Assembly (NCBI GenBank): GCA_964187785.1
Contig: OZ076409.1
Location: 25,732,001-25,796,000 of the forward strand
Reading direction: 5' to 3'
Length of the DNA: 64,000 nucleotides
Source: Amphiscolops sp. MND2022
Lineage: Eukaryota
Shown here: positions 5,444-47,585 of the stretch, in pieces
How positions within the stretch are numbered: position 1 is the stretch's first letter
Layout: every line of letters begins with the position of its first letter
Position numbers and translations under genes: made by a program
The notes under the pieces: generated by a model
What the model was told of the DNA's origin: nothing
Database searches by the model: none
What the model saw: the letters and a program-made list of their open reading frames with translations, nothing else

Positions 5444-5731
5444 TTTTTAGTCGGCGCGTTTTCCTTTTAGGGAAAAATGCCCGATTATAGCAGTGACTCT
5501 TTTGTTTTCTTCAGACTACAATCCTCACACTGATCGGTCCACATTTTAGAAACAATCCTGAAACCACCTAAGGCCAAGGCAAGCTTAGTCCAAAGGTCCC
5601 CTTTTTACATTTTTCGGCACTATGAAACATTTTTCGGAAGAAAAAAATTTCAAGAATTTGAAGTTTTTTTCTTAGAAAAATGTTATGTGCATTTTGAGCC
5701 TTAGATATAGCGCCGACATTGGACATTCTCG
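5444..5731 (+). mobile_element. HINE-like element, family H1 (short copy)
   Basis: 5' TTTTAGTCGGCGC and 3' GCGCCGAC subterminal inverted repeats; matches the minus-strand copy at 5933-6422. Confidence 0.6.
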
Positions 5732-5932
5732 AATACTAATACAGACACGAATAACAACTGCGGATAATGTGGACAACAAAACTGGACCTCACAACGCAAC
5801 TGCCCAGCGAAAACAATACAAAGCAAAAAGTAGGTGACAAAAAGTAGGTAGGTCTATTGGCCCTAGTATACCAGTGCAAGCCCTTGTTGAGCACGAGACG
5901 TAGAGAATTTTACCTGGAGGATGCAAACACTA

Positions 5933-6422
5933 AACAAGACGGGAACGTCTAAAGTCGGCGCCATATCTAAGGCTCAAAAAGCGCAAAAGATTTTTTTGGA
6001 AAAAAAATTGAAATTTTTGAAAAATTTTTTTCTTTCAAAAAAAGTCGCATATTGCCGAAAAACGTAAAAGGGGGACCCTTCTGGATTTCTTAACATACAT
6101 TCCGTTGCAAAATATCAAAACACTCGAAGGGGGACCCTTTGGGGACAAAAAAAATTTCGAAAAAAAGTCGCACAGTGCCGAAAAAAAACTTAAAGGGGGG
6201 ACCCTATAGTCTCGTCCTGTTTTGTATCTTACAATAAAAATGGACTTACTGAAAAGGGGGACCCTTTGCACTATCTCAAATGCGCTGCCAGTATTTTAGT
6301 AGTACTGTATTTAGTAGTTGAACGGTAATTTTAACGTTCGTCGCTTCGAGTCTGTCTTAAATAAAAAAAACGAGTGACTGTAATAGTCGGGCTCTTTTCT
6401 TAAGAAAAGCGCCGACTAAAAA
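5933..6422 (-). mobile_element. HINE-like element, family H1
   Basis: Minus strand begins TTTTTAGTCGGCGC and ends GCGCCGACTTTAGACGTTCCCGTCTTGTT; internal GGGGGACCC repeats. Confidence 0.6.
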
Positions 6423-7260: not shown

Positions 7261-9423
7261 GTAACAGCCAGAATCTTAATACACGGACAGAAAATCTTAC
7301 CGACCGTAGAATACAGCATTTTAATCAACCAACCATTCCATCCTTCAGCAATCGTCTGAACTAGTTAAGTTGATGGCAAAAGATTGCTTTCTGAAACGAA
7401 AAGTACTTCTCTATTGATCATAGTGCTCTATAACAAAATTGGGATATTTTCTTTGAATCGCCCTCTCACTAATTCAATTTCCCCAGTTGAGCGTTCAAGT
7501 GAATTTATTGTTTCATTAATAGTAACAAACAATCAGATTTCTGTATCATTAAAATCTAATTGCAACTGAAACTCATCATTCATATTGAGGTAAATCTATA
7601 TTTTCCGCGCTTACTGTGGGGGAATTAACAGACAATATCCTAAAATTGTACCATGTCTGAGTCAGACACAATTTTTATGAATAATTGACAAAAAATTTGG
7701 AAATTAGGTATCAATTTGTGAAAATTGAGTGAGTATCGGATTGTGCCAGATATCATTACTCTTCCTTCTTTTACAATTGTTAAAAAGATGACTTTGATGC
7801 AAAAGCGAAATGGCATTTTGTCCATATTCTCTTTGTTGATGATGCAGCTATGGTTGACATACTAAGTTCTGAATTTAAGGACATAATTTTGTTACAAACT
7901 TTAATGAAGATGACCGGCATTGGTTGCAGTTATTTGAAAACTGAACTTGTCGTCTTCAGAAAACAATCCCTGAATCATTTGAACTTAGTATTTAGATTTC
8001 ATAAAAATTCCTTTTGTGAGAGCTACAATTATTTGAGGTTGCTTTTTGAGATAAAAACTCAAAAGTTTGAGATACACATCATACATGGTCACTGAAGGAA
8101 CTTGAAGCTCATCCTAGCACCAATGTTAATTAGCGCCAAAAAATGCAGTTATCAATGAAAAAACTCCAACCTTCTAATAGTCCTTAGTCCTTGGCATAGC
8201 CTTTATACCAAAACGACTGTCAAAAGTGCATGATCAGATTACGATGAAGTATTATCTTTGATTTGTCAAACTTTCTTGAAATATTTCCTCAAAGATTTTC
8301 ACATGTTTATTGCTTGCTGCTTGGTGACAGAAAGCCGTATGGTTGAAAATTGGAAAATCATTAAAATGTGATATCAATATTCCTGTGGTAATTTCAACAT
8401 ACGATATGTCTGTCTATACATTTTGTAAAATCAGTAGTGTTTAATCAATCAATCTCCAGGAATAGCCAAAATCATATGGGTGGAATGTGAACAAGATTTC
8501 AATGGCAATCCCAGCCAACAAAATCTAAATCCAGGCATTACTAACTGATTGAAATGGATTGGCGTTATTGAAATAAAAGGGCAGTAGGAGGACAGTAAAT
8601 ATGAATGGTGGATAAATTTAGTAATCAAGGAAGAATGCAACGTGAAATCATCAAAAACTGATTCCGAAAAATACTTTTTACTGCTGTATTTTGAATTTTG
8701 TCCAAAAATTTTAGTATCTTTTTGTAGCTTCTTTGAAAACAAATTCGAATTTGACGTGAAGAAAACACCAAAACTATATCTTTACTATGATAACAGTGGT
8801 GACTGAACGATTCTGCGAGGAAGCTTTTGAAATAAGAAATAAGAAAAAAGCTAAATTAGGTATGATTCATAAAAGACATAAAAATGGTAACTAATGTGCT
8901 TCAAACTCATCCAAAAACAGATGGCTCTCGTTGCACAAAGAAGTCCGCACTTGAATGGTGAAAAATAGAACAGAATTCTCAGAACACCATCTGCAAAACT
9001 ATCCGGTCATTGTACTATTAAGAGTGATGAAAAATGTTCTTAAAACCGAAAATATCTAATTATGAAAGAGAAGACTAATCAGTTTGAGAAAACAAATTTA
9101 ACGTTCTCATTCAACTGATTATCGTTTCGTCAGAAAAAATTGACAGACTTTTTGGTTTATCCCTTCATTTTCTACTAAATGGTTTCGATGTATACTACAG
9201 CATATATGCCACAACAGTGTCAAACTTCACTGGGAAACATAAGAAAAGACTCTAAATTTGCTAGGAAGCCAGCCTAGTCGGCCATGGGAAATATTGTGTA
9301 CTAGTAGATTGTGAGCTATTGTGAGCTCAGACACTTTGATGCGCCGAACAAAAATGACAAAACTGTGACGTAATTGCAGTATCAGCTTCCATGATATTCA
9401 GAAAGAAGTATTCTGGATCATAC

Positions 9424-11347
9424 TGTAGAAAATTTAGAATTCGAGGGCGGAGAGATTTTCCCAAGAATCTAACTCTATCAGAAAAAGGATTTTTGGTGAG
9501 TAAGTTCGGTTATTTCTATCGCGTTCTCACTTATCCAAAGTCTCTCCAGTGCTCAAGTTTTTCGGCCCAAGTCAATCTATCACGAAAAGAGATGTTCAAT
9601 AATCCAATTAACTTCTAATAACGATAATCAAATCGTCTCGTCAAGAATATCAAATCAAGTTAACAAATTGGCTAAAGCTTAGGTCCACGATTCAGTCAAC
9701 TAATTCGATGCGCAAAACACAAGTCCCGGACTTGTTCAAGTTCAATCGCTAGAGCTAACGACAAACCAGTTCTTTTAGCGAAGCCAAGTTTCTTGCCCCC
9801 GTCTCGAGGCTCGACTTGCTTGTAGCTCTCTAACTCGGTTGTGTCTTCAAGTATATTCCAAATCCGCCTCAATTATATTTGTTCATCGCCCGCATTTTAG
9901 TTGTACCGATGTCGCTCTTTTATTTGCATGCTTTTAACTTCATGTTGTTTCATTCCTTTTATGGCATGGCAGCGCCCTAGTTATACTTCGACTAAACATT
10001 CTTCGCCGCCAACGACAAATACTTCAACAAAGGTTGTACAAAGTTCACATTTCAATAATAATTCAAGTCACCCAAGATATTTCTAATATCGAGCCAATCG
10101 TTCAATGACCTTCAATTACATGGTTTACATGCTCTATACGCGTAAGGGGTACTTTTCCGTCCTTTCGGGCGCAATGCATCGCGAATCGTTCTGCCTGGCT
10201 GAATTGCATAACTTATCACTTAACGACGCTGATTTACATGTTTTATCATAAGTTTCTCTATATGTTCATGGGTTGCATCCAGAATGACCTTGAGGTCCAT
10301 CGGTGACCTTGAAGTTAGTCGTCCTCATCCAATGTTGCTACATGCCAGGTTATATCATCCTAGGGTCAATGGTCTTCGAGTTCCATGATATGTGTATCGT
10401 TTGTTTACTTAAGGAGGTTACCCCCGCATGGGTTACAAATACGTTTCCATTCTTGTTAGTAATCGACTACATTCATCGTTCCGGTTCGTTTGAGGTATTA
10501 CGAGCCAAGGTCAAATGTCTTTTATCGGTCGGGCCCGCGCGTCCGGTCCCGCGTGCCTTAAACAAACATTATTCCGCGCGTGGTGGACCGATCAATGTAT
10601 CTTTCATGTATATTACTTAGGGTTACTAGGTGAACATCTTGGGTAAGTTTCATGATCTTCGGGTCATCCGGTGGCTATTTACATAACATTCGAGGTTTAT
10701 TTACTGAGGGTCCGTACTCCTCCTACACGCGTCATTGGGTTCCAAAAATATGCGCAAACAACCTCTTATCCTATGGGCTATTGATTCCATGTATTACATG
10801 ACTTATTCCGTGCTTGGCCGATGAGTTCGTGGGGGGGGTCGACCTAGGTCACTTCCGGTGCTAATAGCCCGGGGCTGGGGGGCTTCGTCTCGGTTCTGTT
10901 TTTATGGACGAGTAGCACAACACCTCAGGTATACGTGTGCCAAATTTCAGGTCTCTACGATTAATAGTCTTTGAGAGAAACCGTTTGGGGGGGGAGTTTA
11001 AAGATTTGCAATGTGACGATTTCCAGTGTTGTATCTTAGGATAATTTCGCTCAAAAGTGGGACTTAGTGAAATTCGCTCTCAGAGATCAACTCTGACTTA
11101 GACAATTCGATCAATTACATCGACGACGTCACTCACTAGCTCGTTAATTTTGCCTGAGAAGTTTCGTTTACGAAGTAAACCTAGTTTGCCAATTAAGTCC
11201 TATCAAAGCATGCTTTTGTCAGTCTGTTCAGCAGTTTTCACTATTCCGGCGGTCCAAAAATGTAATTAACATAGTTCTGCCTATCGTATGTACTTCGTAC
11301 AAAAGCCATGAGAATTTTTGTGCACGCCAAAAACTAAAATTTCCACA
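9424..11347 (-). repeat. 3' LTR of element A (1924 bp)
   Basis: Direct repeat of 24118-26035 with roughly 25 differences by eye (~1.3%). Confidence 0.95.
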
Positions 11348-11359
11348 CTCTTCCCTTCT
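11348..11359 (-). promoter_or_regulatory. Polypurine tract of element A
   Basis: Minus strand AGAAGGGAAGAG directly abuts the TG of the 3' LTR. Confidence 0.85.
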
Positions 11360-11703
11360 GGACTTTTATTCTCCCGAATAAACTTAACGGTATTATCGTT
11401 GGCTGAATCGTGTGATCTAGGTTAAACATACACGTTTTGATAAGTGGTTGGGGCATGGGTCAGGACATTCCGAAATGAAGTCGATAGCACCGACCATGAA
11501 TAGTATATACATTGAACGAAAGCAAAAATAACAACACTAGAATGAAACGATAGAAGAAATCATTTAGTTTACCTATGTCACTCTAAAAACCTACAATGGA
11601 CTATGCGACTATGCAAGAGGGTGGGAGATATACACTAATGAACTTAAGTTCAATTTTTGATTGAATAAAGAGCATGAGTATTAAAAAAACTTTTGGGAGT
11701 GAG

Positions 11704-11997
11704 TTAATCTCGCGCTTTTCTGGAATTAGCCATGAACATGATTAATTCGCCAACTTGCAACCGATGATCAGGGTGGAGGTTTCCCGCGAAGGAGAAGATT
11801 TCTCTTAGGGTTGCAAGCAGGCTTGTCCACATCCGCGTTCCCGGTTGGACTTCTACGTTCCTTCTCCGGGGCCTGTCGGAGCAATGGATCCTAGTGATCA
11901 TGGGCGCATCCCCGAAGTCAAAAAAAATCCTCTCTAACAATACCACCTCTTGGAAATCCTGGCAGTCCCAATTCCAATACAATCCAAAATAAGCCAT
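11704..11997 (-). CDS. Orphan accessory ORF (97 aa), sense to element A
   Basis: ATG in gtcATGG context; more GC-rich than its flanks; globular-looking composition; no recognised homology. Confidence 0.45.
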   Translation of the reverse strand: MAYFGLYWNWDCQDFQEVVLLERIFFDFGDAPMITRIHCSDRPRRRNVEVQPGTRMWTSLLATLREIFSFAGNLHPDHRLQVGELIMFMANSRKARD

Positions 11998-12416
11998 GAC
12001 CGTAAGAAAAAATCAGTCTGTAATAGTAATGACCAAACTCACACTTTACTTTCTACCGCAACAAGAAAGATTCTTAAATTCAAATTTTTCGTACTGCGAT
12101 GTTTCATTTGGAGGGCTGCTTCGAGAGCTGTTTAGAGATCAAACAATTGTTTCCTGTAATCTTATTACTTTCAGCAACATTCGGTTACGGGCTTTTATGA
12201 TTCCATACTTGCCTGTTATGTTATTCACGTCTTAAAGTTCGTCAAGAATCAAAGATTACATGAGGTGGATTTCTCGCTGTCGAATGTTTTGTTTAGTTAG
12301 CAAATTTACTCTTCACCAACAGCTTTCGCCAACTCGACGTTTCGGAACTACAAAATTCTACTTTACATCTTTCAAAGTTTTACGTCTCTTACAAAATTTC
12401 GTGATAATTGAGAACC

Positions 12417-12713
12417 ATGGTGCACGAGAATATCCTAATACGACTGCGATGGGCGTCGCTCTACTATCGAAGGGCTTTCTCTACTCAGAGCCTGAGTGTG
12501 GACGGTGGTTACGATGTCAAAATGGTATTGGAGGATGGCGAGCAGTTTTTACTAGAATATCTGTCGCCTGGTTGGGTCGAATTTGCCCTGTTCCTGCTGA
12601 ATATCCCGATCCCAGGGGAAAACGTCGAGGGTCAGACATTTCGGCTCCGATTGGCCCGACGAACGTTGCACAGAATTTTTAAGAAAACGACCCTTCCAGA
12701 CTTCTTATCTTGA
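12417..12713 (+). CDS. Orphan accessory ORF (98 aa), antisense to element A
   Basis: ATG in accATGG context; more GC-rich than its flanks; no recognised homology. Confidence 0.45.
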   Translation: MVHENILIRLRWASLYYRRAFSTQSLSVDGGYDVKMVLEDGEQFLLEYLSPGWVEFALFLLNIPIPGENVEGQTFRLRLARRTLHRIFKKTTLPDFLS

Positions 12714-13233
12714 ATTCATTTGTACAAAAACTATCATTTTCACTCTAATTTCATCTTTCATCGCTTCATCCCTATTAACCTACTAAAATAATTTATTGCA
12801 TCTTTTCTTTTTGGCAATGCGTAAAGGACGAGTTCTACCGATCCTAATTTACTTGTTCGAGGATAAGTTTGGATTGGTTGGGGTTATTTGTTGCACCTAA
12901 CAAAACAACAAGGAGTGTAGCACTAGGGTAGGGGTTGCGAGATAGGGGTGTGGGTATGTTCATAGGCGCTTTCATAAATGTAATCTGTTAGGGTCAGGGT
13001 TGGGTCGGAAAATTTAAAGAAAAAGAAACTAAAAACAAGAAACGGGTTTTTCGAAGTTCGGCCTCGAGTCCAAGCAAGGTTACTCTTGAAAACATTGAAG
13101 CAGTCTCATCATCTTGCATAACTTAGCTTCGGCGAACTTCAATCTGCCCGACAGCAAGAAATATACTGATTTAACAAATAAATTTAAAAGGAAAATGTTA
13201 GTGTTTCCTAATCAGTTTTGTCAAATTTAATAC

Positions 13234-14535
13234 TCAAGTGTTCGGTGGATGGAGTTTCACGTACATCGCCGCGTCGTCTGGTGGGCACGCTTTGCCGTCA
13301 GCTCGCTTTCCGCTTTTCCACTTCACTCTCTTCCACTGACTGCGCCAGCGACGTGCCCCATCTGATCTCAGTTGCAGCTGCGGCGGTTGTCCCATCTGTT
13401 GGACAGCATTCCATCTGCCATGCTTTCGGTGGGTCGGCCAACTCCGTCGTTGCAATCCCATTTGCTGACCTTCCGTTCTGCGCCTACAATGCTTCCTGTG
13501 GGGTACCCAGAATCGCCTTCTTTGGGTGAGAGCTGGGCGTTGGGGGATAGTTTCATCAAGGGTGTGGCAGCAATGTCGCTCCAGACTGCCTTTCGCTTCA
13601 GTACTTGGGAAGAAGCACTTCTCTTCTGCTTCGATGTCCGTCTCTGATCTGCCGGTTGCCTTGGTGACATCACAGACACTTTCAGTCAACATCTTGTGAA
13701 CACCATTGCCATGTACAAGGACTCCTTCCCATTCAAGAAGCTCAGACTATCCACCTCTATCTTGGTCTGCGTTTTCCACATCCAATTCTTCTAATAGAGC
13801 GTCGATGATTGTTTCGTCTTCGTCGGACAGTTTATGGGATTCATCAAGCTCTTCCATTTCTTTCAAAATCTCATCGAGCATTGCATGGTCAACGTCTTTC
13901 ACAGCGGAAGTTGCTGGATTCCAACGCTCCTCCATCAGTCTCTGGTGTTGATGTTCGACGACCAACACTTCTGTCAACTGCCCCTGTTCCCAGTTTATAT
14001 TTTCAACAACGGTCTCTCGACTCCGAACAAGCACTTCAAAGTCGTTCGTCAATGGAGAACACGTCATCACGGCTGTGTGAGGCGCACGCTTCCCTTCTGC
14101 ATCGAATCCCACAGCTGAGTCCTTGGGTTTTGCCAAAACTCGATCATCACTTGCATTTGCAGAAGTCGCCGCCTCGCAAAAGCAATTGTCCGGGAGCAAT
14201 ACAGCTTCCAATTCACGCTCGAAATCATGACTTCGTGTCGTCGTTATCGCCTCTCGCACCGTGCAGAATTGATCCACCTGCGACGCAAGTGTACCAGGTT
14301 GTCGAGCTAAGCCGTTTCTCGGACACAGTTTTTCACGGGCCACTCCTAATCTTTCCACGTGCATCTGTTCGTCTCGATACTGGTCACTGGCACCTCCGTG
14401 GCGTACTGCTTTTACAGCTAATCTCCCTGCTGCAGCTTTCACAATTGCCTTTGCCTGTTGTTGCGATAGGGTTTCTGTTGGTGCGGCCGGGAGAATTAAC
14501 TCCTGCGGTGGTCCCCCGGCCCTCACTAGTTTAAA
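13234..14535 (-). pseudogene. -1 frame ORF2 of element A (non-pol, ~430 codons, one internal TAG at 13747-13749)
   Basis: ORFs 13747..14595 and 13234..13692 are in the same frame, separated by one TAG; acidic helical middle, Arg/Trp-rich C-terminus; no D[ST]G, YxDD or integrase motif. Confidence 0.6.
14485..14535 (-). promoter_or_regulatory. -1 programmed ribosomal frameshift signal
   Basis: Minus strand U UUA AAC (14535-14529) in gag frame just before TAG, a 7-nt spacer, then stem GGCCGGGGGA / TCTCCCGGCC with a 17-nt loop. Confidence 0.75.
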
Positions 14536-15387
14536 TGACTGCGTCTTCGTGGGCATTTCCCTGCAATGTGTCCATCTACCCCTCACACATAACATCGAAC
14601 TGGCTTTTTCGATTGGGAGGCACCAATAAACTGCACTGGGGTCACCGTTTTGACAAATTGGGTCATCATATCTCTCAGACTGTTCATTTCATCAGTCAAT
14701 CTTTTCAGTTGCTGTTTCATCTTGTTCATCTCCGAGATGCTGTTCATTGTACCCGCCTCTTGAGTCATCCTGATTGCATCTACGCGCTTGTTGGGTCGGC
14801 TGTGTAGAGATTCGGCAATATTTTTTAAGGCAACCGCTCTATCAACTGTCTCCCTGAAGGTCCTGTTGTCTTCTCTTAGTAATACTTCGAGCAGCTCCGG
14901 ATTAGACAAACCTTCAACGAAACGCTCACGAAACAGTTCATCTCGTTGTTCAGCATCCACGTTGGCGTACACTAACATGGCGGTATTCCGCACTCTGCGC
15001 GCAAAGTCCCTGAGGCTCTCATTCCCTTTCTGCGCCACTGCTTCAAACTCACTTCTCCCCCTTCGGTCGTTTCGCAGCACACCCAAGGCTCTGTCCAAAT
15101 TTTCAAAGAGTGCCTGCAACGTGGGGACTGGTTCTCCGTTGACATGCTGTTTCAGCTCGGCCGGTGCAGCATGAAACTCATCTAGCGCATTCCCACTGAT
15201 ACAAACTGGAAGTGCATTAATAAATTGTATTTGGGTCCACCGGTTAGTCTCTGCCACTGCAACGAAGTGTAGTTTCCATTGGACCCAGTTTGGAAAGGCT
15301 TCAGAGGGGAATCGATCTGGTTTGAGGGCTCCATTGCTGAACATACGGTTCTGCTGATCGTTCAGCACCCTTCCAACGGCCTGCATG
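14526..15387 (-). pseudogene. gag: Gag of element A (main part), Ty3/Gypsy-type capsid plus CCHC knuckle
   Basis: QKGNESLRDFARRV...RERFVEGL retrotransposon-gag motif; knuckle C-Y-V-*-G-V-D-G-H-I-A-G-K-C with the second Cys as TGA (14583-14585); N-terminus at 23994-24031. Confidence 0.85.
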
Positions 15388-15392
15388 GCCAC

Positions 15393-16345
15393 TGTAGGCG
15401 CCAGTCAATTGCGAGATCAGAAACTCAAATTCGAACGTGACTGATGAAACTTACAACTCAAAACACTTAGAAACTTTGTCAAGATTTTAGTTGGAAATTT
15501 TACAAGTTTCACCAGAAATATGGCGTCACCAAAAAGGGCCACCCCCCCGTCCCGATAAACCACTCATTCAATCACCTTCAAACTTGGCACACGTATAGTA
15601 GTGGTGCTATCCTAACTTTTCACTAGAAACAACCAACCCCGTATCCCCCCTGGGTTCCGAGCTATTAACACCCAAAGTGACCTAGGTCGGACCCCATGAA
15701 TTACCCAATTTTGATATATTAATTATTATGTGATTTTCCTATATGACCTTGAAGGAAATTCATCTCTGTTGAAATTACTGATATTTACATTGTGTAAACA
15801 TACTTTCTAACCCACCTGACCAACATGCCAAAACCACCACATAGTTTGTTTACTTAGCCAATAACTTCATTTTATGCTTTAAATGTCATTTTATTTATAC
15901 CACATATTTCAACTGATATTTGCTTATATTTACTGTAGAACTGTAAACCATATGTATACCATTGTTAGATAGAGATTTTTTCCACTGAATAGCTATAGTC
16001 AAGTTGGGTCTTAGGACCAAGAGACTAATTAATCAACTTCTCAATCTTCACAACTTTTCGCTAGAGTCAGAGCGACTAAGTAGCTACTCTCATAGTTGGA
16101 GAGCCGGAGCGCGTGAAGATACCGTGAGGGAAGTGTGTTACGGATCACATCGGATCCAAATCAGTGCAAAGAGGAATCGCAGGAGATTCCACGGGTCACA
16201 TCGGACCCACCAGTCTAAAGATACAGTCCTTTAAAACAAGAAAACCAGGATTTGTTTAGTGACGGTCCACAGCACTAAGCAACGGATCAGGGCGGCGTAA
16301 AGCTTGTCAAGCCTCAGCGCAGGATAAAGGCAAGCAGCCGTTACA
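15393..16345 (+). repeat. 5' LTR of element B
   Basis: Direct repeat of 23041-23993, about 11 substitutions by eye. Confidence 0.95.
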
Positions 16346-16347
16346 TT

Positions 16348-16364
16348 TGGTCCGCCGACCCGGA
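16348..16364 (+). promoter_or_regulatory. Primer binding site of element B (tRNA-Tyr-like)
   Basis: TGGTCCGCCGACCCGGA, 2 nt after the LTR; resembles the TGGTCCTTCGAGCCGGA tRNA-Tyr PBS common in BEL/Pao. The tRNA identity is inferred. Confidence 0.75.
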
Positions 16365-16463
16365 CAACTCTTTGGTGGACGACCCGGACTAGAAGAAGAC
16401 GACTCGTTGGTGGACAACTGAGAAGATTGCCCAAGAAGAACAAGTGTCTGGATCTTGGAGTCT

Positions 16464-16663
16464 CTACTGTGTCTCTGGGAGATTGGGCTACTGTGTCTCT
16501 GGGAGATTGGGCTATTGTGTCTCTGGGAGATTGGGCTATTGTGTCTCTGGGAGCTTGGGCTATTGTGTCTCTGGGAGATTGGGCTATTGTGTCTCTGGGA
16601 GATTGGGCTTTTGTGTCTCTTGGATATTGGGCTATTGTGTCTCTGGGAGATTGGGCTATTGTG
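16464..16663 (+). repeat. 24-bp minisatellite, ~8 copies, in the leader of element B
   Basis: Unit CTATTGTGTCTCTGGGAGATTGGG. Confidence 0.95.
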
Positions 16664-16697
16664 ACTTTGGAACTAAACTCAATCGACAAGAGAAGAG

Positions 16698-19600
16698 ATG
16701 GCAGAACCAAAACGGTTCGATATCAACAAAATCGAAAACTTTCTGAAGAACTCTGCTGACAAAGCCCAAACGTTGAGTTATTGGAATGCAGCTGTCGAAC
16801 ACGGTAAGACTGTTAAAGAAATTGATGAGAACCTAACTAGCAATGTTGACGACAAGAAGATAGCAGATTTACTGCTAAGACGAACAGATTCCATGAACAG
16901 GAGGGATCGGCTCATTAAGGCAGTCGAAAATGCGATCAAAGTCAAGTATCAACCGCAGATACCCGAAATCTTCTCAACAGTGAACAAAGAAATGCAGAGC
17001 CGATTGGCTGAGTTGCAGCAGCAAAGCTCTAGCATTGGAAGGGTACAAATGCTGATGTCAGCATTGCAAGACGAAAATCAGATACTAAATTACTTGGATC
17101 TTGACGAAAAGAAACGTGCTATTGATAGACTAATGGATAGCAACAAAAAGTTGCGGGAAGATTCAATCGCAAATGGCAAAGTTGTCGACGAAGAAGATTA
17201 TGCTGCAGCATGTCAAGAATTGCTGCAGAAACGGTCTGACATTAAAACGAAGATTGAAGATCTGCTGAAGACAGGAGAAGGAGGAGCCATTTTGCGAAGT
17301 CTTGAAGACGCTGAACAAAGACTAGCAGACGCTCGGGTAAACTCAGCAGCAGACAAATCCAGTAAAAATGGTACCTCACCACAAAAGGAACCACAATCAG
17401 ACAATGAGCAAAAAAGACATGATGATGGCCATAACGCAGATGACAGACAAGAGCCAAGAAATGGAGCTAGTTCATTGCCAATAGACGAATTGAGCATACA
17501 TTCGCGAAGTAAAAGAACCAAAAGCAACAAAACGTCTGTGATTTCAAAAACATCTAGTGCACGACGATTTCTCGATTTGGAGCTGAAATCTTTGAAAGAG
17601 CAAGAAGAACTTCAAACCCGCCTAGAGAAACTGAGACGTGAAGCAAACGAAGTTAAGATAGCTAGCTTGCAAGATGAGATGGTTAGCTTGCAAGAGGAGA
17701 TGGCCCGCAAAGCCAAAATTGCTGAAAAGGAACTACAAATGGCGCAAGTGTCGAGTGGTGATGGGTCTAGCTTCCGAAGTATCTCACCAGTCGGGACTCC
17801 AGATGACAATCTGACGAAAGTCTCAGGATGGATGGACAAGACAGAAGAAGCTGAAAACGTGGCATCGCAGATTAACGTGCTATCTGTATACCAGCAAACG
17901 TCCATCTCAGCACCAGTGATTTCAGTACGATCAAGTCATGGAGGACAAGGCTCCGCGCAAGTGAGGGATTTGAAGTCCTCATTGAAACCAGTCATGTCCA
18001 CAGAGACCGCTGTGCGAGATATTGGAAAGGACAGAACAAAGACTGTCATAGATGTTGGCAGTCAAAGAGCAACAGAACAACCAGAAGTGAAATTCGCCTC
18101 ATCGAAGCCGTCGATGACTCTCGGTGCAGACCTGAATCGGTTACCGCCTACGTTTGGAGGCATTCCGAGTAGTGCATTTCAAGTACCACAGCTTGAGAAC
18201 ACACAGAAGCAGTATATGCCAAGTCAAGGGCCAAACATAGTGTCAAATGCGAGAGATGACTACTACATCAGATCTAGCTTGCCAAAACTGAAGCTGGCAG
18301 AGTTTTCCGGTGACCCATTGGAGTGGCCAGAGTGGTCACAACTCTTTCAAGCAACCGTCCACGCAGCCAATATGGATGACAGTGTAAAGATGAATCACCT
18401 GAAAACCATGGTCACAGGCAAAGCCAAGGAGGCGATTGCTGGCCTTGGGTACACTGCTGAGATGTACAATGTGGCGTGGAACGTTCTAGTTCGAAACTTT
18501 GGAAAACCCCAAATGGTTGTGAACGCCCAGTTGAAGCGAATCTATTCCTTTCCCCCTATGAAACCTTATGATGGAGCTGCATTGATTAAGTTTGCGAGTA
18601 TAGTGTCGAGTTGTGTGAACGTTCTGACACAATTCAACTACGTGGGAGACCTAAACTCAGAAGGAGTTTTAGGCAGTGCCACAAGGAAGTTAACATTGGA
18701 CATGAAAACGAAGTGGCTCACTTATGTGAAGCAAATGAACCTGTATCAACCCGGACTCTCCGTGTTCAGTGAATGGCTCAATGATATAGCAGATGTTCAA
18801 GACGAATTGCTCTTGTCTTCAAACCCGAATGCTGATCGCGCGAAGTCGAACTACAAGGAAAAGACCAAAGGCTCCACGTTTGCCACATCAACAACAAACA
18901 CAGCCAGTGACAACTCGAAATACCAGCGACAGTGTGCGCTGAAAGATGGCAAACATCCCATATGGAAATGTGAGAAGTTCAAGAAGATGAACGTCGAAGA
19001 AAGAGGACAAAAGGCGAAAGAGTTGAAATTGTGCTTCAAATGTTTGTCAGACGCGCATCAGATGAGAAATTGCTCTGGTAGACTCTGCGACGTAAGTGGT
19101 TGCGGAAAACCTCATCACAGATTGCTTGACAGACCATACAAGAACGTGGAACAAAAGCAAAATGTTGAAAATGTCGAAGAGGTCTCCAATTTGTCATCAA
19201 TGAAAAGCAGTGGAGTGCTTCCAGTAATTCCAGTAACGATAGGGAGTGAGAGCAAAGCTCTGAAAACGTTCGCTTTGTGCGACTCTGGAGCAAGCCTGTC
19301 CTTTGTGGACGAGAGCCTTATGAAAACGCTAAATCTGACGGGACAGCCAGTGGATTTGAATGTTGCAGGGATTCATGGAACGTCAGATATTAGTAGCAAA
19401 CGACTTCGAGTCAGGATTGGAGATCAGGACGGAAAAGTCAAAGAAGATATCATGGCATATAGTCATCCCAACGTGAATGCAGGAAATCGAACTTACAACC
19501 TCAAGAAATTAAAAGAGACATATCCTCACCTGTCAGTATTGAGGGAGTCTACCATCAACTTGGGAGAAGTGAATGTCATCTTGGGCCAAGATTGCTACCA

Positions 19601-21605
19601 CTTGCATAGAGCAATCGACTATAGAAAGTGTGGAAACGCAAAGCCCTGGGCAGTGCGAACGAAGCTGGGATGGATGCTCAGTGGACCCTTGCCTCAGCAA
19701 GAGACTGCGAAGCTTGCTACTGAAAGCTTAGTCGCTGCAGAAGTGGACCCATTAGCGGATCAAGTGAAAACTTGGTGGAGCATGGAATCGTATGCTTCCA
19801 ACTGCAGCGCATCCGGAAGGTCCAAAGAGGATGACAAAGCCCTCGAAATGCTCAAGGCAACCACAAAGTTCGATGGAGAGAGGTATGAGGTCGGGCTACT
19901 TTGGAAAAATGCAAAGCCGTATTTGCCGAACAACTACAGTTCAGCAGTAAGTCAATTGAAGTCTCTCGAGCGCCGACTGGAAAAGGATGAGAGCTTGAAA
20001 CAACGCTACAAAGAGACAATTGACGTGGATGTACAAAAGGGGTTTGTGAGAGTTCTGGACGAAGCAGAGCTTGAAAACACTAATTCAGACCTTCAGTGGT
20101 ATGTTCCGCATCTCCCTGTGCTGAACCCGAACAAGCCGGATAAAGTGAGACGAGTGTGCAACGCTGCCTCAAAGTTCGGAGGTGTGTCGCTGAATGATAA
20201 CTTGATGGCCGGTCCAGACCTCCTACAATCGCTGATAGGAATTATCTTCAGATTCAGGGAAAAGGAAATCGCCCTGACAGCAGACGTCGAAGCAATGTTT
20301 CTCCAAGTGAAAGTACCCCCTACTGATTGCAGAGTACTGAGATTTTTGTGGAGAGAAAACCACACTGACCCTATCTCTGTGTATGAATATGGAAGACACA
20401 TTTTTGGAGCTAAGAGTTCGCCAACATGTGTCAACTACGTTTTGCAACAAGTCGGACGAGACAGCAGAGATGACAATGGGATGGTTGCAAAGTTGATCAA
20501 CAGAAACTTCTATATGGACGATTTTGTGAAGTCAGTAGCTTCGAGGGAAGAAGCTGTGGAAGTGTATAATGGCTTGCGAAAATCCTTAGCGGATCGTGGC
20601 TTTCAACTAACGAAATGGATCTGCAACTCAGAGAAAGTAATGGAAGAAATTCCTTCTGAAGATAGATCAGACACGCTAAGTAAAACATTCGAAGCTGAAC
20701 CCTTGGCACCCTCTATCTTGGGACTCCAGTGGAATGTGGAGTCAGACAGTCTTGAGATTTGCCGCGGTACGGGAAAAGAGGTGCCTGTCAAGATCACTCA
20801 GAGAATTGTTCTATCTCACGTATCCCCTGTGTTTGACCCGTTGGGATTGTTTTCCCCCTTCACAGTGAGAATGAGATTGTTGCTCAAAGGAATATGGAAG
20901 AAGCATGGGCAATCGTGGGACGAACAAGTTTCTCCAGAAGACGAGATTGCTTTCAAGGATTGGGCATCGGAGTTGAGTCAAATGAATGAAATGGCTATCA
21001 AAAGAAAATATCTATCGAAAAATGCTGAAGTAGTGGACTTGCATATTTTTGCCGATGCATCCCTGGAAGCCATGTGCATAGTTGATAACTTTCGAGATCA
21101 ACAAACTGGAGAGCTTGCCTATGTGGTAGGGAAATGCCGAGTAGCGCCAATGAAGCAACAATCAATTCCCCGACTAGAGCTACAAGCAGCTATGTATGGA
21201 ACCCGATTAAAACAACTGATCGTAGACGAACACGACATTCAAGTTGAACGAACTTTCTTTTGGACGGATTTGACAACCGTTTTGCAATGGTTGCATGGAG
21301 CTGACAAGAAACAACCGGTGTTTGTAGCGAATAGAGTCGCTGAAATCCTTGACAGTTCAACTATTGATCAGTGGAGACATGTCGAAGGAACCTTAAACCC
21401 TGCCGACATTGGAACAAGAGGAAAATCCGTCCACGAATTAGAAAAGAGCGAGTGGTTCACAGGGCCGGCATGGCTTCAAGAAAAGGAAGATGCTTGGCCA
21501 CAAACTTCACCACAGTTGTTTCAGCGGAAAACAGAGGACATAGAGCAAGTCTTTGAAGTTGTGTCAGAAGAAAAGAACATTGATTCGGTTCGTTCAGACA
21601 AATGA
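16698..21605 (+). CDS. BEL/Pao Gag-Pol polyprotein (gag, Cys/His knuckles, aspartic protease, RT, RNase H)
   Basis: 1635 aa; FSGDPLEWPEW gag region, CFKCLSDAHQMRNC and CGKPHHRLL knuckles, ALCDSGAS protease, NFYMDDF RT, LHIFADAS...IPRLELQAA...NPADIGTRG RNase H. Confidence 0.95.
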   Translation: MAEPKRFDINKIENFLKNSADKAQTLSYWNAAVEHGKTVKEIDENLTSNVDDKKIADLLLRRTDSMNRRDRLIKAVENAIKVKYQPQIPEIFSTVNKEMQSRLAELQQQSSSIGRVQMLMSALQDENQILNYLDLDEKKRAIDRLMDSNKKLREDSIANGKVVDEEDYAAACQELLQKRSDIKTKIEDLLKTGEGGAILRSLEDAEQRLADARVNSAADKSSKNGTSPQKEPQSDNEQKRHDDGHNADDRQEPRNGASSLPIDELSIHSRSKRTKSNKTSVISKTSSARRFLDLELKSLKEQEELQTRLEKLRREANEVKIASLQDEMVSLQEEMARKAKIAEKELQMAQVSSGDGSSFRSISPVGTPDDNLTKVSGWMDKTEEAENVASQINVLSVYQQTSISAPVISVRSSHGGQGSAQVRDLKSSLKPVMSTETAVRDIGKDRTKTVIDVGSQRATEQPEVKFASSKPSMTLGADLNRLPPTFGGIPSSAFQVPQLENTQKQYMPSQGPNIVSNARDDYYIRSSLPKLKLAEFSGDPLEWPEWSQLFQATVHAANMDDSVKMNHLKTMVTGKAKEAIAGLGYTAEMYNVAWNVLVRNFGKPQMVVNAQLKRIYSFPPMKPYDGAALIKFASIVSSCVNVLTQFNYVGDLNSEGVLGSATRKLTLDMKTKWLTYVKQMNLYQPGLSVFSEWLNDIADVQDELLLSSNPNADRAKSNYKEKTKGSTFATSTTNTASDNSKYQRQCALKDGKHPIWKCEKFKKMNVEERGQKAKELKLCFKCLSDAHQMRNCSGRLCDVSGCGKPHHRLLDRPYKNVEQKQNVENVEEVSNLSSMKSSGVLPVIPVTIGSESKALKTFALCDSGASLSFVDESLMKTLNLTGQPVDLNVAGIHGTSDISSKRLRVRIGDQDGKVKEDIMAYSHPNVNAGNRTYNLKKLKETYPHLSVLRESTINLGEVNVILGQDCYHLHRAIDYRKCGNAKPWAVRTKLGWMLSGPLPQQETAKLATESLVAAEVDPLADQVKTWWSMESYASNCSASGRSKEDDKALEMLKATTKFDGERYEVGLLWKNAKPYLPNNYSSAVSQLKSLERRLEKDESLKQRYKETIDVDVQKGFVRVLDEAELENTNSDLQWYVPHLPVLNPNKPDKVRRVCNAASKFGGVSLNDNLMAGPDLLQSLIGIIFRFREKEIALTADVEAMFLQVKVPPTDCRVLRFLWRENHTDPISVYEYGRHIFGAKSSPTCVNYVLQQVGRDSRDDNGMVAKLINRNFYMDDFVKSVASREEAVEVYNGLRKSLADRGFQLTKWICNSEKVMEEIPSEDRSDTLSKTFEAEPLAPSILGLQWNVESDSLEICRGTGKEVPVKITQRIVLSHVSPVFDPLGLFSPFTVRMRLLLKGIWKKHGQSWDEQVSPEDEIAFKDWASELSQMNEMAIKRKYLSKNAEVVDLHIFADASLEAMCIVDNFRDQQTGELAYVVGKCRVAPMKQQSIPRLELQAAMYGTRLKQLIVDEHDIQVERTFFWTDLTTVLQWLHGADKKQPVFVANRVAEILDSSTIDQWRHVEGTLNPADIGTRGKSVHELEKSEWFTGPAWLQEKEDAWPQTSPQLFQRKTEDIEQVFEVVSEEKNIDSVRSDK

Positions 21606-23092
21606 CGCAAATCTTCGCCTATTGCCTTCGGTTCAAATCAAAAATCAAAGGAAAGGTGGTGATAACAGAAGAATTGCAACAAGTGATCCGACTGTTACTG
21701 AGGAAGAGCCAGATTGAAAGTTTTGGTCCAACTTATCAAGTATTGGCAGCAGGTAAACCCATGGCTGCATCTGATCACTTGAACAAACTGTCACCATTTA
21801 TGGACAATCAGCTAATGCGATTAAAAGGACGACTGCGTCATGCTGATGCGAGTTATGAAATGAAACATCCTATTTTGCTATATGCGAAGCATCCAATAGT
21901 GAGGAAATTGATTGAAGATGCGCATGAAAATAACTATCACGAAGGAACAGAGTATGTTCGCAGCATTTTGCAGCAAAATTATTGGATAATTGGACTCCGA
22001 AACGCGCTTAGAAATGTGAAGCTGAAGTGTGTTAAGTGTAGAAAGCAACAAGTCGGAGGAGTTCAACCTTTCATGGCAGACCTACCTAAAGAAAGATTGG
22101 AAGAAAGAGTTTTCCCATTTGCCAACACTGGAGTAGATTATTTTGGACCATTCGAAGTGAGATTCATGAGGAAATCAATGAAACGATGGTGTTGTCTATT
22201 CACATGTTTGACAACAAGAGCTGTGCATGTTGAAGTTGTGCCCAGCCTGGAAGCCAACGCATGTCTTGCTGCAATTACGAGATTCATCGCAAGAAGAGGA
22301 AAACCGAATATCATTCTAAGTGATAATGGAACAAATTTTGTGGGTGCAGCGAGAGAAATGCGAGAATGGATAGAAGCTTGGAATCAATCAGACATTGAGC
22401 AGTCTTTGGCTCAAAAGCAAATAAAATGGAAGTTCAACCCCCCAGGAGCTCCTCATTTTGGAGGTGTTTGGGAGCGAATGGTCAGAAGCTGCAAGAAAAC
22501 TATGATGACAATTGTAGGAAACAGAACACTGACAGATGATGTATTATCCACAACAATGTGTCTAGTCGAGCAAATATTGAATTCGAGACCTCTGACTAGT
22601 GTCAGTGATGATCCTGAAGATTTGGAAGCCTTGACCCCAAATCACTTCCTGCTAGGACGTGCAAGTCCAGCAACCCCATTTATTCCTGACGCTCAGCGAT
22701 ATACCGATCTGAGAGAAGTATTCAGAGTATCACAAGCATACACAGACATGATTTGGAGCAGATGGAATAGAGAATATTTACCACAATGGAATGAGAGATC
22801 TAAATGGAATAAAGAAGAAGTTAGACAACTGGAAGTCAATGATTTGGTTTGGATAGTGGATGAGAATCTAAAAAGAGCACACTACAAGATGGGTAGAGTG
22901 TTGGAAGTCTACCATGGAAGCGATGGGCGAGTGAGATCAGCGCTGGTGAAAACAGAAGATGGAAAACTCAAAAGACCAGTAGTGAAACTGGCACCCATGT
23001 TCTACGAAAGTGTTTTTCGGGAGAAAAACAGGGCTGGCAATGTAGGCGCCAGTCAATTGCGAGATCAGAAACTCAAATTCGAACGTGACTGA
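21584..23092 (+). CDS. BEL/Pao integrase, out of frame with the upstream pol
   Basis: H..H..CVKC zinc domain, GVDYFGP, SDNGTNF, GGVWERMV; frame opens FGSFRQMTQIFAYCLRF; ends 52 nt inside the 3' LTR. Confidence 0.9.
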   Translation, partial: FGSFRQMTQIFAYCLRFKSKIKGKVVITEELQQVIRLLLRKSQIESFGPTYQVLAAGKPMAASDHLNKLSPFMDNQLMRLKGRLRHADASYEMKHPILLYAKHPIVRKLIEDAHENNYHEGTEYVRSILQQNYWIIGLRNALRNVKLKCVKCRKQQVGGVQPFMADLPKERLEERVFPFANTGVDYFGPFEVRFMRKSMKRWCCLFTCLTTRAVHVEVVPSLEANACLAAITRFIARRGKPNIILSDNGTNFVGAAREMREWIEAWNQSDIEQSLAQKQIKWKFNPPGAPHFGGVWERMVRSCKKTMMTIVGNRTLTDDVLSTTMCLVEQILNSRPLTSVSDDPEDLEALTPNHFLLGRASPATPFIPDAQRYTDLREVFRVSQAYTDMIWSRWNREYLPQWNERSKWNKEEVRQLEVNDLVWIVDENLKRAHYKMGRVLEVYHGSDGRVRSALVKTEDGKLKRPVVKLAPMFYESVFREKNRAGNVGASQLRDQKLKFERD

Positions 23093-23993
23093 TGAAACTT
23101 ACAACTCAAAACACTTAGAAACTTTGTCAAGATTTTAGTTGGAAAATTTACAAGTTTCACCAGAAATATTGCGTCACCAAAAAGGGCCACCCCCCCGTCT
23201 CGATAAACCACTCATTCAATCACTTTCAAACTTGGCACACGTATAGTAGTGGTGCTATCCTAACTTTTCACTGGAAACAACGAACCCCGTATCTCCCCTG
23301 GGTTCCGAGCTATTAACACCCAAAGTGACCTAGGTCGGACCCCATGAATTACCCAATTTTGATGTATCAATTATTATGTGATTTTCCAATATGACCTTGA
23401 AGGAAATTCATCTCTGTTGAAATTACTGATATTTACATTGTGTAAACATACTTTCTAACCCACCTGACCAACATGCCAAAACCACCACATAGTTTGTTTA
23501 CTTAGCCAATAACTTCATTTTATGCTTTAAATGTCATTTTATTTATACCACATATTTCAACTGATATTTGCTTATATTTACTGTAGAACTGTAAACCATA
23601 TGTATACCATTGTTAGATAGAAATTTTTTCCACTGAATAGCTATAGTCAAGTTGGGTCTTAGGACCAAGAGACTAATTAATCAACTTCTCAATCTTCACA
23701 ACTTTTCGCTAGAGTCAGAGCGACTAAGTAGCTACTCTCATAGTTGGAGAGCCGGAGCGCGTGAAGATACCGTGAGGGAAGTGTGTTACGGATCACATCG
23801 GATCCAAATCAGTGCAAAGAGGAATCGCAGGAGATTCCACGGGTCACATCGGACCCACCAGTCTAAAGATACAGTCCTTTAAAACAAGAAAACCAGGATT
23901 TGTTTAGTGACGGTCCACAGCACTAAGCAACGGATCAGGGCGGCGTAAAGCTTGTCAAGCCTCAGCGCAGGATAAAGGCAAGCAGCCGTTACA
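23041..23993 (+). repeat. 3' LTR of element B
   Basis: TGTAGGCGCC...GCCGTTACA, 953 bp. Confidence 0.95.
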
Positions 23994-24031
23994 GCCAATT
24001 CCAGCAAATCTCGTTTCTCGTTTGGATTCAT
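23994..24031 (-). pseudogene. gag: Displaced N-terminus of element A gag (MNPNEKRDLLEL-A)
   Basis: Joins in frame to 15387 after removing element B and one TSD copy. Confidence 0.8.
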
Positions 24032-24099
24032 CTCCCAAACAGCCAGTAAAAGCAAAATCAAAGTAACAAGTTGTAACACGATAGCAAATTAACGAAATG

Positions 24100-24116
24100 C
24101 CCAACCAGGAGCGCCA
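24100..24116 (-). promoter_or_regulatory. Primer binding site of element A
   Basis: Minus strand TGGCGCTCCTGGTTGGG, 1 nt after the 5' LTR; complementary to a tRNA 3' end ...GGAGCG-CCA (tRNA-Asn-like, inferred). Confidence 0.75.
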
Positions 24117-24117
24117 C

Positions 24118-26035
24118 TGTAGAAAATTTAGAATTCGAGGGCGGAGAGATTTTCCCAAGACTCTAACTCTATCAGAAAAAGGATTTTTGGTGAGTAAGTT
24201 CGGTTATTTCTGTCGCGTTCTCACTTATCCAAGGTCTCTTCAGTGCTCAAGTTTTTCGGCTCAAGTCAATCTATCACGAAAAGAGATGTTCAATAATCCA
24301 ATTAACTTCTAATAACGATAATCAAATCGTCTCGTCAAGAAAATCAAATCAAGTTAACAAATTGGCTAAGGCTTAGGTCCACGATTCAGTCAACTAATTC
24401 GATGCGCAAAACACAAGTCCCGGACTTGTTCAAGTTCAATCGTTAGAGCTAACGACAAACCAGTTCTTTTAGCGAAGCCAAGTTTCTTGCCCCCGTCTCG
24501 AGGCTCGACTTGCTTGTAGCTCTCTAACTCGGTTGTGTCTTCAAGTATATTCCAAATCCGCCTCAATTATATTTGTTCATCGCTCGCATTTTAGTTGTAC
24601 CGATGTCGCTCTTTTATTTGCATGCTTTTAACTTCATGTAGTTTCATTCCTTTTATGGCATGGCAGCGCCCTAGTTATACTTCGACTAAACATTCTTCGC
24701 CGCCAACGACAAATACTTCAACAAAGGTTGTACAAAGTTCACATTTCAATAATAATTCAAGTCACCCAAGATATTTCTAATATCGAGCCAATCGTTCAAT
24801 GACCTTCAATTACATGGTTTACATGCTCTATACGCGTAAGGGGTACTTTTCCGTCCTTTCGGGCGCAATGCATCGCGAATCGTTCTGCCTGGCTGAATTG
24901 CATAACTTATCACTTAACGACGCTGATTTACATGTTTTATCATAAGTTTCTCTATATGTTCATGGGTTGCATCCAGAATGACCTTGAGGTCCATCGGTGA
25001 CCTTGAAGTTAGTCGTCCTCATCCAATGTTGCTACATGCCAGGTTATATCATCCTAGGGTCAATGGTCTTCGAGTTCCAATATATGCGTATCGTTTGTTT
25101 ACTTAAGGAGGTTACCCCCGCATGGGTTACAAATACGTTTCCATTCTTGTTAGTAATCGACTACATTCATCGTTCCGGTTCGTTTGAGGCATTACGAGCC
25201 AAGGTCAAATGTCTTTTATCGGTCAGGCCCGCGCGTCCGGTCCCGCGTGCCTTAAACAAACATTATTCCGCGCGTGGTGGACCGATCAATGTATCTTTCA
25301 TGTATATTACTTAGGGTTACTAGGTGAACATCTTGGGTAAGTTTCATGATCTTCGGGTCATCCGGTGGCTATTTACATAACATTCGAGGTTTATTTACTG
25401 AGGATCCGTACTCCTCCTACACGCGTCATAGGGTTCCAAAAATATGCGCAAACGGCCTCTAATCCTATGGGCTATTGATTCCATGTATTACATGACTTAT
25501 TCCGTGCTTGGCCGATGAGTTCGTGGGGGGGTCGACCTAGGTCACTTCCGGTGCTAATAGCCCGGGGCTGGGGGGCTTCGGCTCGGTTCTGTTTTTATGG
25601 ACGAGTAGCACAACACCTCAGGTATACGTGTGCCAAATTTCAGGTCTCTACGATTAATAGTCTTTGAGAGAAACCGTTTGGGGTGGTTTAAAGATTTGCA
25701 ATGTGACGATTTCCAGTGTTGTATCTTAGGATAATTTCGCTCAAAAGTGGGACTTAGTGAAATTCGCTCTCAGAGATCAACTCTGACTTAGACAATTCGA
25801 TCAATTACATCGACGACGTTACTCACTAGCTCGTTAATTTTGCCTGAGAAGTTTCGTTTACGAAGTAAACCTAGTTTGCCAATTAAGTCCTATCAAAGCA
25901 TGCTTTTGTCAGTCTGTTCAGCAGTTTTCACTATTCCGGCGGTCCAAAAAGTAATTAACTAGTTCTGCCTATCGTATGTACTTCGTACAAAAGCCATGAG
26001 AATTTTTGTGCACGCCAAAAACTAAAATTTCCACA
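24118..26035 (-). repeat. 5' LTR of element A (1918 bp)
   Basis: Direct repeat of 9424-11347. Confidence 0.95.
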
Positions 26036-33300: not shown

Positions 33301-34217
33301 AAGATATCCATTCAGTTTTGTTGAAAGGAATCATAACTGAAAATCCGTAGAAGGTAGTTTTCAAACAAAAATACAAATCGCAATTAGCGGACCCGATAAT
33401 AACGTAAAAACAGACACGGGAAATACTTCACCGAAAATTCATTTTGGGTCCATTATTTCAGTCTGACAGAAAAGACCGGAATACGACGGCACCCACAGTT
33501 TCAGCCGAAGTTACAACGAAAAAACGTCAGTGTCTCCGCGGTCTCTACGGAAAGTATTGCAACCGGGACGAGATCCTCCAATGGTAACTTGAGAATAGTC
33601 CAAAGCAAGAAAGCCGAGATGGATACAGATGATGAAGACGATGGTATTGACGAAGACGATGAAGAAATGCCGGACGAGATCGGAAAGAGCTATGAAGCTG
33701 TGACACGTCCGAGAGAGACGGAAGATACACACCCATCCGAACTGATCCGGAAAAGGACGCCATCCAAATTCACACCGGATGGCGCAACCCCACAGCGTCA
33801 GAAAATTTCTGATAAAATCAGACGGTCAGACCGAAACACTAATAAACCGAATAGATACGGTTGCGTACCTATACAAAAAACTTTTAGATAAGACTAATTA
33901 ATTAAGACTGTTACAGGTCCAATGTGGAACAGGACGAAAGGCACCCCCAGCAGGAAAAGATTCAGAAGCCCGCGGATTTCATGCTAGGAGACATGACACC
34001 ACCTCGGAACCTCCAACATGTAGAAAGCTCGCGAAAGAGAGAGGAGGAAATGTCATACGGTTCATCCGATCAATATGACCTCTACCCAAATGCGGTGGCA
34101 GAATACCTGCTCGTGTTTGTCAACAAAACCTATAGATATACAACTGTTATATCATGTGGAGTTCTATTACAATGAGATTTTATATACCAAGCCTAATCGT
34201 ATCGTGAGATTACAACA
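30363..34217 (+). mobile_element. Decayed Ty3/Gypsy LTR retrotransposon (element C)
   Basis: Diverged short LTRs 30363-30548 and 34051-34217; PBS TGGCGCAGTCAG (30549, tRNA-Ser-like); PPT 34033-34050; TSD AAAAC on both sides; fragmented gag (CNKCGKKRHYARAC), RT (KQKARPIP) and integrase (QIDFTG). Confidence 0.85.
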
Positions 34218-47552: not shown

Positions 47553-47585
47553 GCTTACCATTTTTGGGCAAAATCACTGAAAACA

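Follow-up and report, generated by a model that had tools for sequence, protein, structure and literature searches.

A colinear module common to the long terminal repeats of nested Gypsy-like and BEL/Pao elements in Amphiscolops sp. MND2022

The exchange of blocks between subfamilies of long terminal repeats (LTRs), gag-only retrotransposons and central repeats of 140-180 bp are all known already. Swapping of LTRs between autonomous and non-autonomous partners was reportedly described in soybean by Du et al. in 2010. The length of the 140-180-bp repeats of Helentrons and satellites is often ascribed to nucleosomes, without test, and LTRs of different superfamilies do not, to our knowledge, normally align. 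LTR7 subfamilies of HERVH have exchanged blocks, giving mosaic LTRs whose shared blocks carry factor sites (PMC8912925), and HINE and DINE-1 elements carry their repeats behind a GTCY microsatellite (PMC7492417, PMC2374699, PMC4067079); HINEs are also reported to insert into other transposons (PMC7492417). Here we describe a module present in the LTRs of a Gypsy-like element (element A) and of a BEL/Pao element (element B) inserted into it, both located in 64,000 nucleotides of Amphiscolops sp. MND2022 (assembly GCA_964187785.1, contig OZ076409.1, positions 25,732,001 to 25,796,000, forward strand). This whole stretch is referred to as the window, and positions are counted from its first letter. 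The module is older than the insertions that carry it; its head is akin to animal-like repeats outside LTRs, and its tail is common to A and B only.

The shared module, its head and its tail

The module belongs to both element families, being present in both LTRs of each:

10835..10947, minus strand: module in the 3' LTR of A, boxes 1 to 3 at 10930-10943, 10857-10868 and 10840-10854
25528..25640, minus strand: module in the 5' LTR of A, boxes spanning 25533-25636
15580..15695, plus strand: module in the 5' LTR of B, boxes 1 to 3 at 15584-15597, 15661-15672 and 15675-15689
23228..23343, plus strand: module in the 3' LTR of B, boxes spanning 23232-23337

Box 1 is TTGGCACACGTATA, box 2 GCTATTARCACC and box 3 AAGTGACCTAGGTCG; the three are colinear in all four LTRs, and the span from box 1 to box 3 is 104 bp in A and 106 bp in B. 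The first-pass annotation, which was made from the letters alone, had claimed the boxes with their positions, order and near-equal spans and their recurrence in the second LTRs, and all of this was confirmed. It had also listed TGACCTTGA in both LTRs. The word is indeed present, but it lies outside the module and is not colinear: in the sense of each element it occurs as two copies of TCAAGGTCA in A and one copy of TGACCTTGA in B, facing opposite ways.

A BLASTN comparison of the window with itself aligns the modules of A and B over 118 columns with 73.7% identity (E 2.5e-8). The spacers between the boxes align too (11-13 of 20 positions per block), and transitions make up 13 of the 24 substitutions. 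The similarity withstood the shuffling check on its significance: the Smith-Waterman score of LTR A against LTR B is 73, against a mean of 23.8 and a maximum of 36 in 1000 dinucleotide shuffles and a maximum of 35 in 1000 local 20-nt shuffles (Gumbel p 1e-12), none of either set reaching 73. With the module removed, the best score between the LTRs is 23 (27 on the other strand), which is the chance level. Judged by these alignments, the module is a case of true homology and not of chance.

The module occupies positions 396-508 of 1918 in LTR A and 188-303 of 953 in LTR B, which, counted from the 5' end, is in the first quarter to third of both and would place it in U3. The C-runs that surround it are 150-152 bp apart. 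No further copies were found in the 58 kb of the window outside the four LTRs, a third, decayed LTR element of the window has an LTR without the module, and Rfam returned 0 matches. The LTRs contain no microsatellite or tandem array; for subterminal inverted repeats or a 3' hairpin, which had no dedicated search, self-BLAST of the LTRs gives only short palindromes. A shared RNA fold or dimerisation hairpin was considered and rejected, the stability of the modules being that of shuffles (z -1.5 to 0.5) and their folds unlike.

The Jukes-Cantor distance between the modules of A and B is 0.26, against 0.012 for each LTR pair, a difference of about 20-fold. The module therefore predates this nesting, and gene conversion caused by the nesting was rejected on the same distances. 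No difference within an LTR pair falls inside a box, the differences being few and giving little power. Relative to the remainder of the window, LTR A has an excess of AGGTCA half-sites (5, where 0.66 would be expected; p 6e-4) and LTR B a weak one (2, where 0.33 would be expected; p 0.04); AGGTCA is a consensus of nuclear-receptor sites.

The head of the module, T[CG]AAA[CT]TTGGCACACGTATA with about 30 bp upstream of it, is not specific to LTRs. Exact matches to a 20-letter core around box 1 were found in metagenome contigs at 24 loci from 12 assemblies; the same core was met a single time in 596 Gb of prokaryote genomes (about 4 expected at equal base frequency). Two of 14 open reading frames (ORFs) tested near the external loci have metazoan-type domains (C2H2, SH2), and the loci look like animal DNA. 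By our own grouping of their BLAST table they fall into 11 sequence families, of which six match an upstream profile built from the remaining ten, with no more than 43 of 5000 shuffles doing as well. The common upstream layout is an ATCTC-like word, about 15 bases, AGCTA or CCGAT, six bases and the core. The head lies within tandem monomers of 143-146 bp in 3 of the 24 loci, a GTCY-rich microsatellite stands directly ahead of it in 4 loci of two families, and in several external units AGGTCA or TGACCT words occur and a GGGACCCC run follows the core. The near-identical loci L017 and L027 were removed before the profiles run over the window and the word count in the external loci, both given below, were made. 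The profile of the external repeat units matches the following feature:

10929..10981 (the same at 25622-25674), minus strand: module head in A

The score is 28.5 bits with all external units and 18.4 bits, over 10931-10964, with the units that do not hold the exact seed, the best of 20 shuffled windows reaching 9.3. When the window was ranked by a profile of 23 such seed-free units, the four modules came out on top (18.5, 18.4, 10.4 and 9.5 bits); set against a shuffled best of 4.0-9.3, the result is clear for A (18.5) and marginal for B (10.4). TGACCTTGA or TCAAGGTCA is found 13 times in 70 kb of external loci, against once in 58 kb of non-LTR window, and 1128 and 1083 times in the array file of the oyster Cg_HINE supplement, against about 13 each by chance. 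Four matches of the head pattern in viral contigs were without shared context and were judged to be chance. A comparison that does not depend on the seed is that with printed CL1 monomers of oyster Cg_HINE: aligned by hand, the head of A agrees with them at 35-36 of 65 ungapped positions, or at 27-28 of 56 once the anchor is left out (uncorrected p 2-6e-4).

Six external loci (L011, L014, L022, L027, L012 and L015) hold the word CGCTAGGGGGC or CGCCCCCTGG 28-68 bases behind the core. These words are presumably CTCF-like; in A and B, a C-run at +69 is all that stands in their place.

The 100-bp tail behind the head is common only to A and B among the sequences compared. Even when the seed itself is excluded, A and B align over the 110 bases that follow it at z 11.6-13.5. 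Among 298 between-family pairs the A-B pair scores highest, at 185 (the runner-up has 128, the median is 46), and its score falls in the range of the 27 within-family pairs (146-550). Ahead of the core, the 35 bases of A fail to align with those of B (z 0.3-0.7), though each stretch weakly fits the general profile. From the core onward, then, both LTRs appear to carry the same local variant.

LTR A may hold further traces of such heads. One candidate was picked post hoc and is modest (z 3.0-3.8):

10304..10388, minus strand: candidate additional head, decayed, at position 988 of LTR A

Core-like sites are seen at LTR positions 394, 690 and 988 (window positions of about 25642, 25346 and 25048), with an inverted one at about 1190-1250. 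They are 296 and 298 bp apart, twice the nucleosome core length. Their upstream flanks align in two of three pairs (z 3.0-3.1), and 6 sites are counted against 5 expected.

Origin and possible role of the module

We lean, by a modest degree, towards the reading that the module is a local variant of an animal repeat unit of about 150 bp, which entered both LTRs and has been kept there as a chromatin or promoter element. The unit would stem from the genome's stock of repeats of about 150 bp, such as the central repeats of non-autonomous Helentrons (HINEs) and the satellites derived from them, would have joined the LTRs of the Gypsy-like and BEL/Pao families long before these two insertions, and would be recopied into both LTRs with every round of reverse transcription. 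Two routes, which we infer to be about equally likely, might have led there. Both LTR lineages may have taken up a monomer separately, the donors being related repeats in this genome. Alternatively, both LTRs may already have possessed heads, and recombination starting in the common core carried the following 100 bp over from one LTR family to the other; this second route fits because the similarity begins at the core and the 35 bp ahead of it do not align. Upstream of the start site, such a cassette could set one nucleosome, its palindrome GACCTAGGTC (TGACCT/AGGTC) would offer a site to a host factor, and selection would preserve the three boxes and their spacing. A block shared and constrained in this way would mean that sequences pass between superfamilies, and if it is kin to the 140-180-bp repeats, their function could be measured in it, as a single unit in a promoter. 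A bolder version makes the unit a portable, nucleosome-length chromatin cassette of animals, known first from Helentron central repeats and satellites, which LTR retrotransposons of different superfamilies take into their promoters and pass to one another by recombination at the conserved core, with A and B running on the same version and answering to the same host factor; it is speculative and in our view unlikely.

Several results weigh against the favoured reading. Because the seed that led to the external loci came from A and B themselves, the kinship is partly built in, and the external units without the seed are neighbours of seed matches. The upstream profile fails in 5 of the 11 external families; the sequences upstream in A and B match it weakly (94 and 131 of 5000 shuffles), no better than one chance control, which scores 63 of 5000. 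Whole-monomer profiles match the head alone, none of 28 external loci aligns with the tail (z no higher than 2.1), and a donor repeat with the tail, sought with box 2-box 3 and box 1-box 3 patterns, gave 0 matches in three collections and none in the window. In the oyster comparison, made by hand, the rows and the anchor were chosen, and the Cg_HINE array file does not contain the exact core words. LTR A has no autocorrelation peak at 148 bp. With respect to function, the half-sites are ordinary words of such repeats, and the modules have no RNA fold in common. The perfect boxes do clump somewhat above uniform divergence, in two perfect runs of 14 (p 0.024, from a test inflated by the ends of the local alignment). 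Nucleosome positioning, which the first-pass annotation had put forward, is favoured indirectly by the C-run distance and by the monomer length of the kindred repeats, but not by a 10-bp AA/TT/TA periodicity, for which 102 and 395 of 1000 shuffles of the modules were equally strong.

The module might instead be a neutral passenger, a fragment of a mobile repeat or satellite that landed separately in the ancestor of each LTR and has no function; we regard this as unlikely. The module would then be nothing more unusual than a repeat that ended up inside another, as is reported for HINEs (PMC7492417). The head being a common repeat motif, the modest clumping of identity and the decayed heads in LTR A all suit such an origin. 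A ubiquitous repeat had indeed been named in advance as the finding that would overturn the notion of an LTR module, and in part it was found: the head, AGGTCA and TGACCTTGA are common in non-LTR repeats, but the module is not scattered through the window, and even its repeat-rich flanking DNA (58 kb) holds no free copy. Separate landings also sit poorly with one unit in each LTR, in the same orientation and at a similar place, with the want of a microsatellite or tandem array there, and with boxes free of LTR-pair differences, as far as so few differences can tell.

A nuclear-receptor enhancer born in an LTR and exchanged between the two families for joint expression, with B helping A, was the original proposal, and we consider it rather improbable. 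It could draw on the tail common to A and B alone, on the half-sites enriched in LTR A and weakly in LTR B, on the absence of pol from A and on the precedent of block exchange between HERVH LTR subfamilies (PMC8912925). The same words are plentiful in non-LTR repeats, however; the head, AGGTCA and TGACCTTGA are common in non-LTR repeats of animals, so that their presence alone does not point to an LTR enhancer. Joint expression with B as helper found no support, and the helper is the weakest point of this proposal: the termini and primer-binding sites of A and B are different, B sits in the gag of A and breaks it, and that gag forms a family of its own. We know of no trans-mobilisation across superfamilies, which counts further against B as the helper. 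Convergence, in which identical host-factor sites with identical spacing arose independently in the two LTRs, has on its side that three short boxes carry much of the score and that the recurrence of the head in unrelated repeat families could reflect repeated selection, but it is quite improbable given that the spacers align as well, that the A-B pair scores far above every other between-family pair and that transitions are 13 of the 24 substitutions.

The two elements and other repeats of the window

Element A, read on the minus strand, comprises the following features:

9424-26035, minus strand: element A, Gypsy-like, gag-only, outer member of the nested pair
9424..11347, minus strand: 3' LTR of A, 1924 bp, TG...CA in sense
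24118..26035, minus strand: 5' LTR of A, 1918 bp, 29 differing columns (23 substitutions) against the 3' LTR
24099..24116, minus strand: putative primer-binding site of A by its sequence, beginning TGGCGCTCC
11348..11361, minus strand: polypurine tract of A, read from its sequence
23994..24031, minus strand: first codons of A gag, severed from the remainder by the insertion of B; relatives begin alike
14526..15392, minus strand: main part of A gag, Retrotrans_gag match at E 6e-4, below cut-off
13234..14525, minus strand: ORF2 of A, in another frame, internal stop near 13747, no pol domain

The LTR pair of A is 98.5% alike, and the element without B measures about 8.0 kb. Its LTRs with TG...CA ends, primer-binding site and polypurine tract agree with the terminal traits of Ty3/Gypsy elements; the label "Gypsy-like" itself rests on weak Pfam and Atlas matches. 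The gag has a stop in its zinc knuckle near 14583 and terminates in TTTAAACTAG, a slippery-type motif, at 14526-14535. It has 58 relatives among 621 candidates and forms a large family of its own, in which Retrotrans_gag is found below cut-off in 5 of 22 members and zf-CCHC in 9 of 22. Its Atlas neighbours are PNMA, Retrotrans_gag and Ty3_capsid at 0.92-0.96; a PDB profile search gave nothing below E 0.007, and the fold model, with a predicted local distance difference test (pLDDT) score of 41, is too poor for a structure search.

No pol was found in element A. ORF2 sits after TTTAAACTAG, where pol would begin; it has an acidic stretch and belongs to no known family, having no Pfam match and no usable Atlas match. 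It is 76% identical to the C-terminal part of the natural protein P0071, in which gag and the same ORF2 are present. Because P0071 carries both, the absence of pol is not peculiar to this copy of A. Longer relatives of the gag or of ORF2, gag-pol included, were not found, which is weak evidence, and no related loci were confirmed for A gag or for the reverse transcriptase (RT) of B. Element A has no target-site duplication, its flanks being CATAC and TGCTG. The left flank ATCATAC (9419-9423) is the reverse complement of GTATGAT, which lies 4 bases into the right flank (26036-26046). From this flank pattern, A is possibly a recombinant of two copies.

Element B is inserted at the first codons of A gag, in the orientation opposite to A:

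15393-23993, plus strand: element B, BEL/Pao, inserted in A gag
15393..16345, plus strand: 5' LTR of B, 953 bp, TG...CA, with GCCAC ahead (15388-15392)
23041..23993, plus strand: 3' LTR of B, 953 bp, 11 substitutions against the 5' LTR, with GCCAA behind
16348..16364, plus strand: putative primer-binding site of B by its sequence, beginning TGGTCCGCC
16677..23092, plus strand: gag-pol of B in two frames, frame change near 21584-21605

The domains of its gag-pol follow the order DUF1759, protease, RT, Peptidase_A17 (the Pao peptidase/RNase H region), integrase and DUF5641. By these domains and their order B is a BEL/Pao element, and the LTR ends, the primer-binding site and the target duplication, which matches in 4 of 5 bases, also fit. 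An RT search over representatives returned 36,393 matches, given without DNA context. The leader of B contains 8.6 copies of a 24-bp unit (16464-16670), directly ahead of the gag-pol ORF.

Other repeats are present in the window. The third, decayed LTR element (30363-34237) has LTRs of about 186 bp (TGTCA...CAACA) that are 82% alike, a primer-binding site starting TGGCGCAG at about 30549, and remnants of a zinc knuckle and an integrase zinc finger. Three copies of a 3.29-kb block, at 99-100% identity, lie in 33600-43500; the block contains the 3' end and 3' LTR of this element together with an array of 31-bp repeats, and its repetition would be either a recent tandem duplication or an assembly artefact. 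The element at 45070-47981, with 16-bp inverted subterminal repeats and a duplicated end of more than 300 bp (spacing 2478), looks like the remnant of a DNA transposon; its 185-aa ORF (46302-46859, minus strand) has no Pfam match. Diverged tandem arrays of 176-194-bp units at 56100-57550 and 61130-62160 and a foldback at 5592-6154 gave no match above chance to the module or the head profile.

Comparison with described systems

We found no report in the literature of a block common to Gypsy-like and BEL/Pao LTRs or of the head motif, though the motif may well be described in figures, supplements or subscription papers. The pair resembles the swapping partners of soybean in that a pol-less element has LTR sequence in common with a coding one. 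Unlike them, A and B have only about 118 of 953 and 1918 bp in common, and their termini, primer-binding sites and superfamilies differ. In its gag, LTRs, primer-binding site and polypurine tract without pol, element A is comparable with the gag-only TR-GAG elements (PMC4350172) and zebrafish Bik-1 and Bik-2 (10.1101/2024.03.25.586437). TR-GAG elements are described as shorter than 4 kb and as having one ORF (PMC4350172), whereas A is about 8 kb long and has 1.9-kb LTRs and a second ORF.

Closest to the module are the central repeats of Cg_HINE elements of the Pacific oyster, the Cg170/HindIII family included, along with Pearl, DTC84 and MgE (PMC7492417). The units measure 140-180 bp, to be set beside the 150-152 bp of the module, and likewise show TGACCTTGA and TCAAGGTCA words, C or G runs and TGACCT-AGGTC palindromes (CL6, 146 bp). 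Unlike Cg_HINE repeats, the module is a single unit in the LTRs of two superfamilies, has neither an array nor a microsatellite nor recognised HINE ends, and has a tail without match. The DINE-1/HINE core block, as described in PMC2374699 and PMC4067079, follows a GTCY microsatellite, and this layout recurs in 2 of the 11 external head families. The LTR modules differ from DINE-1 in having no microsatellite, and the likeness to DINE-1 concerns the described layout. Lastly, the exchange described for HERVH took place within one family with co-packaged RNAs (PMC8912925), whereas the module reported here spans Gypsy-like and BEL/Pao elements.

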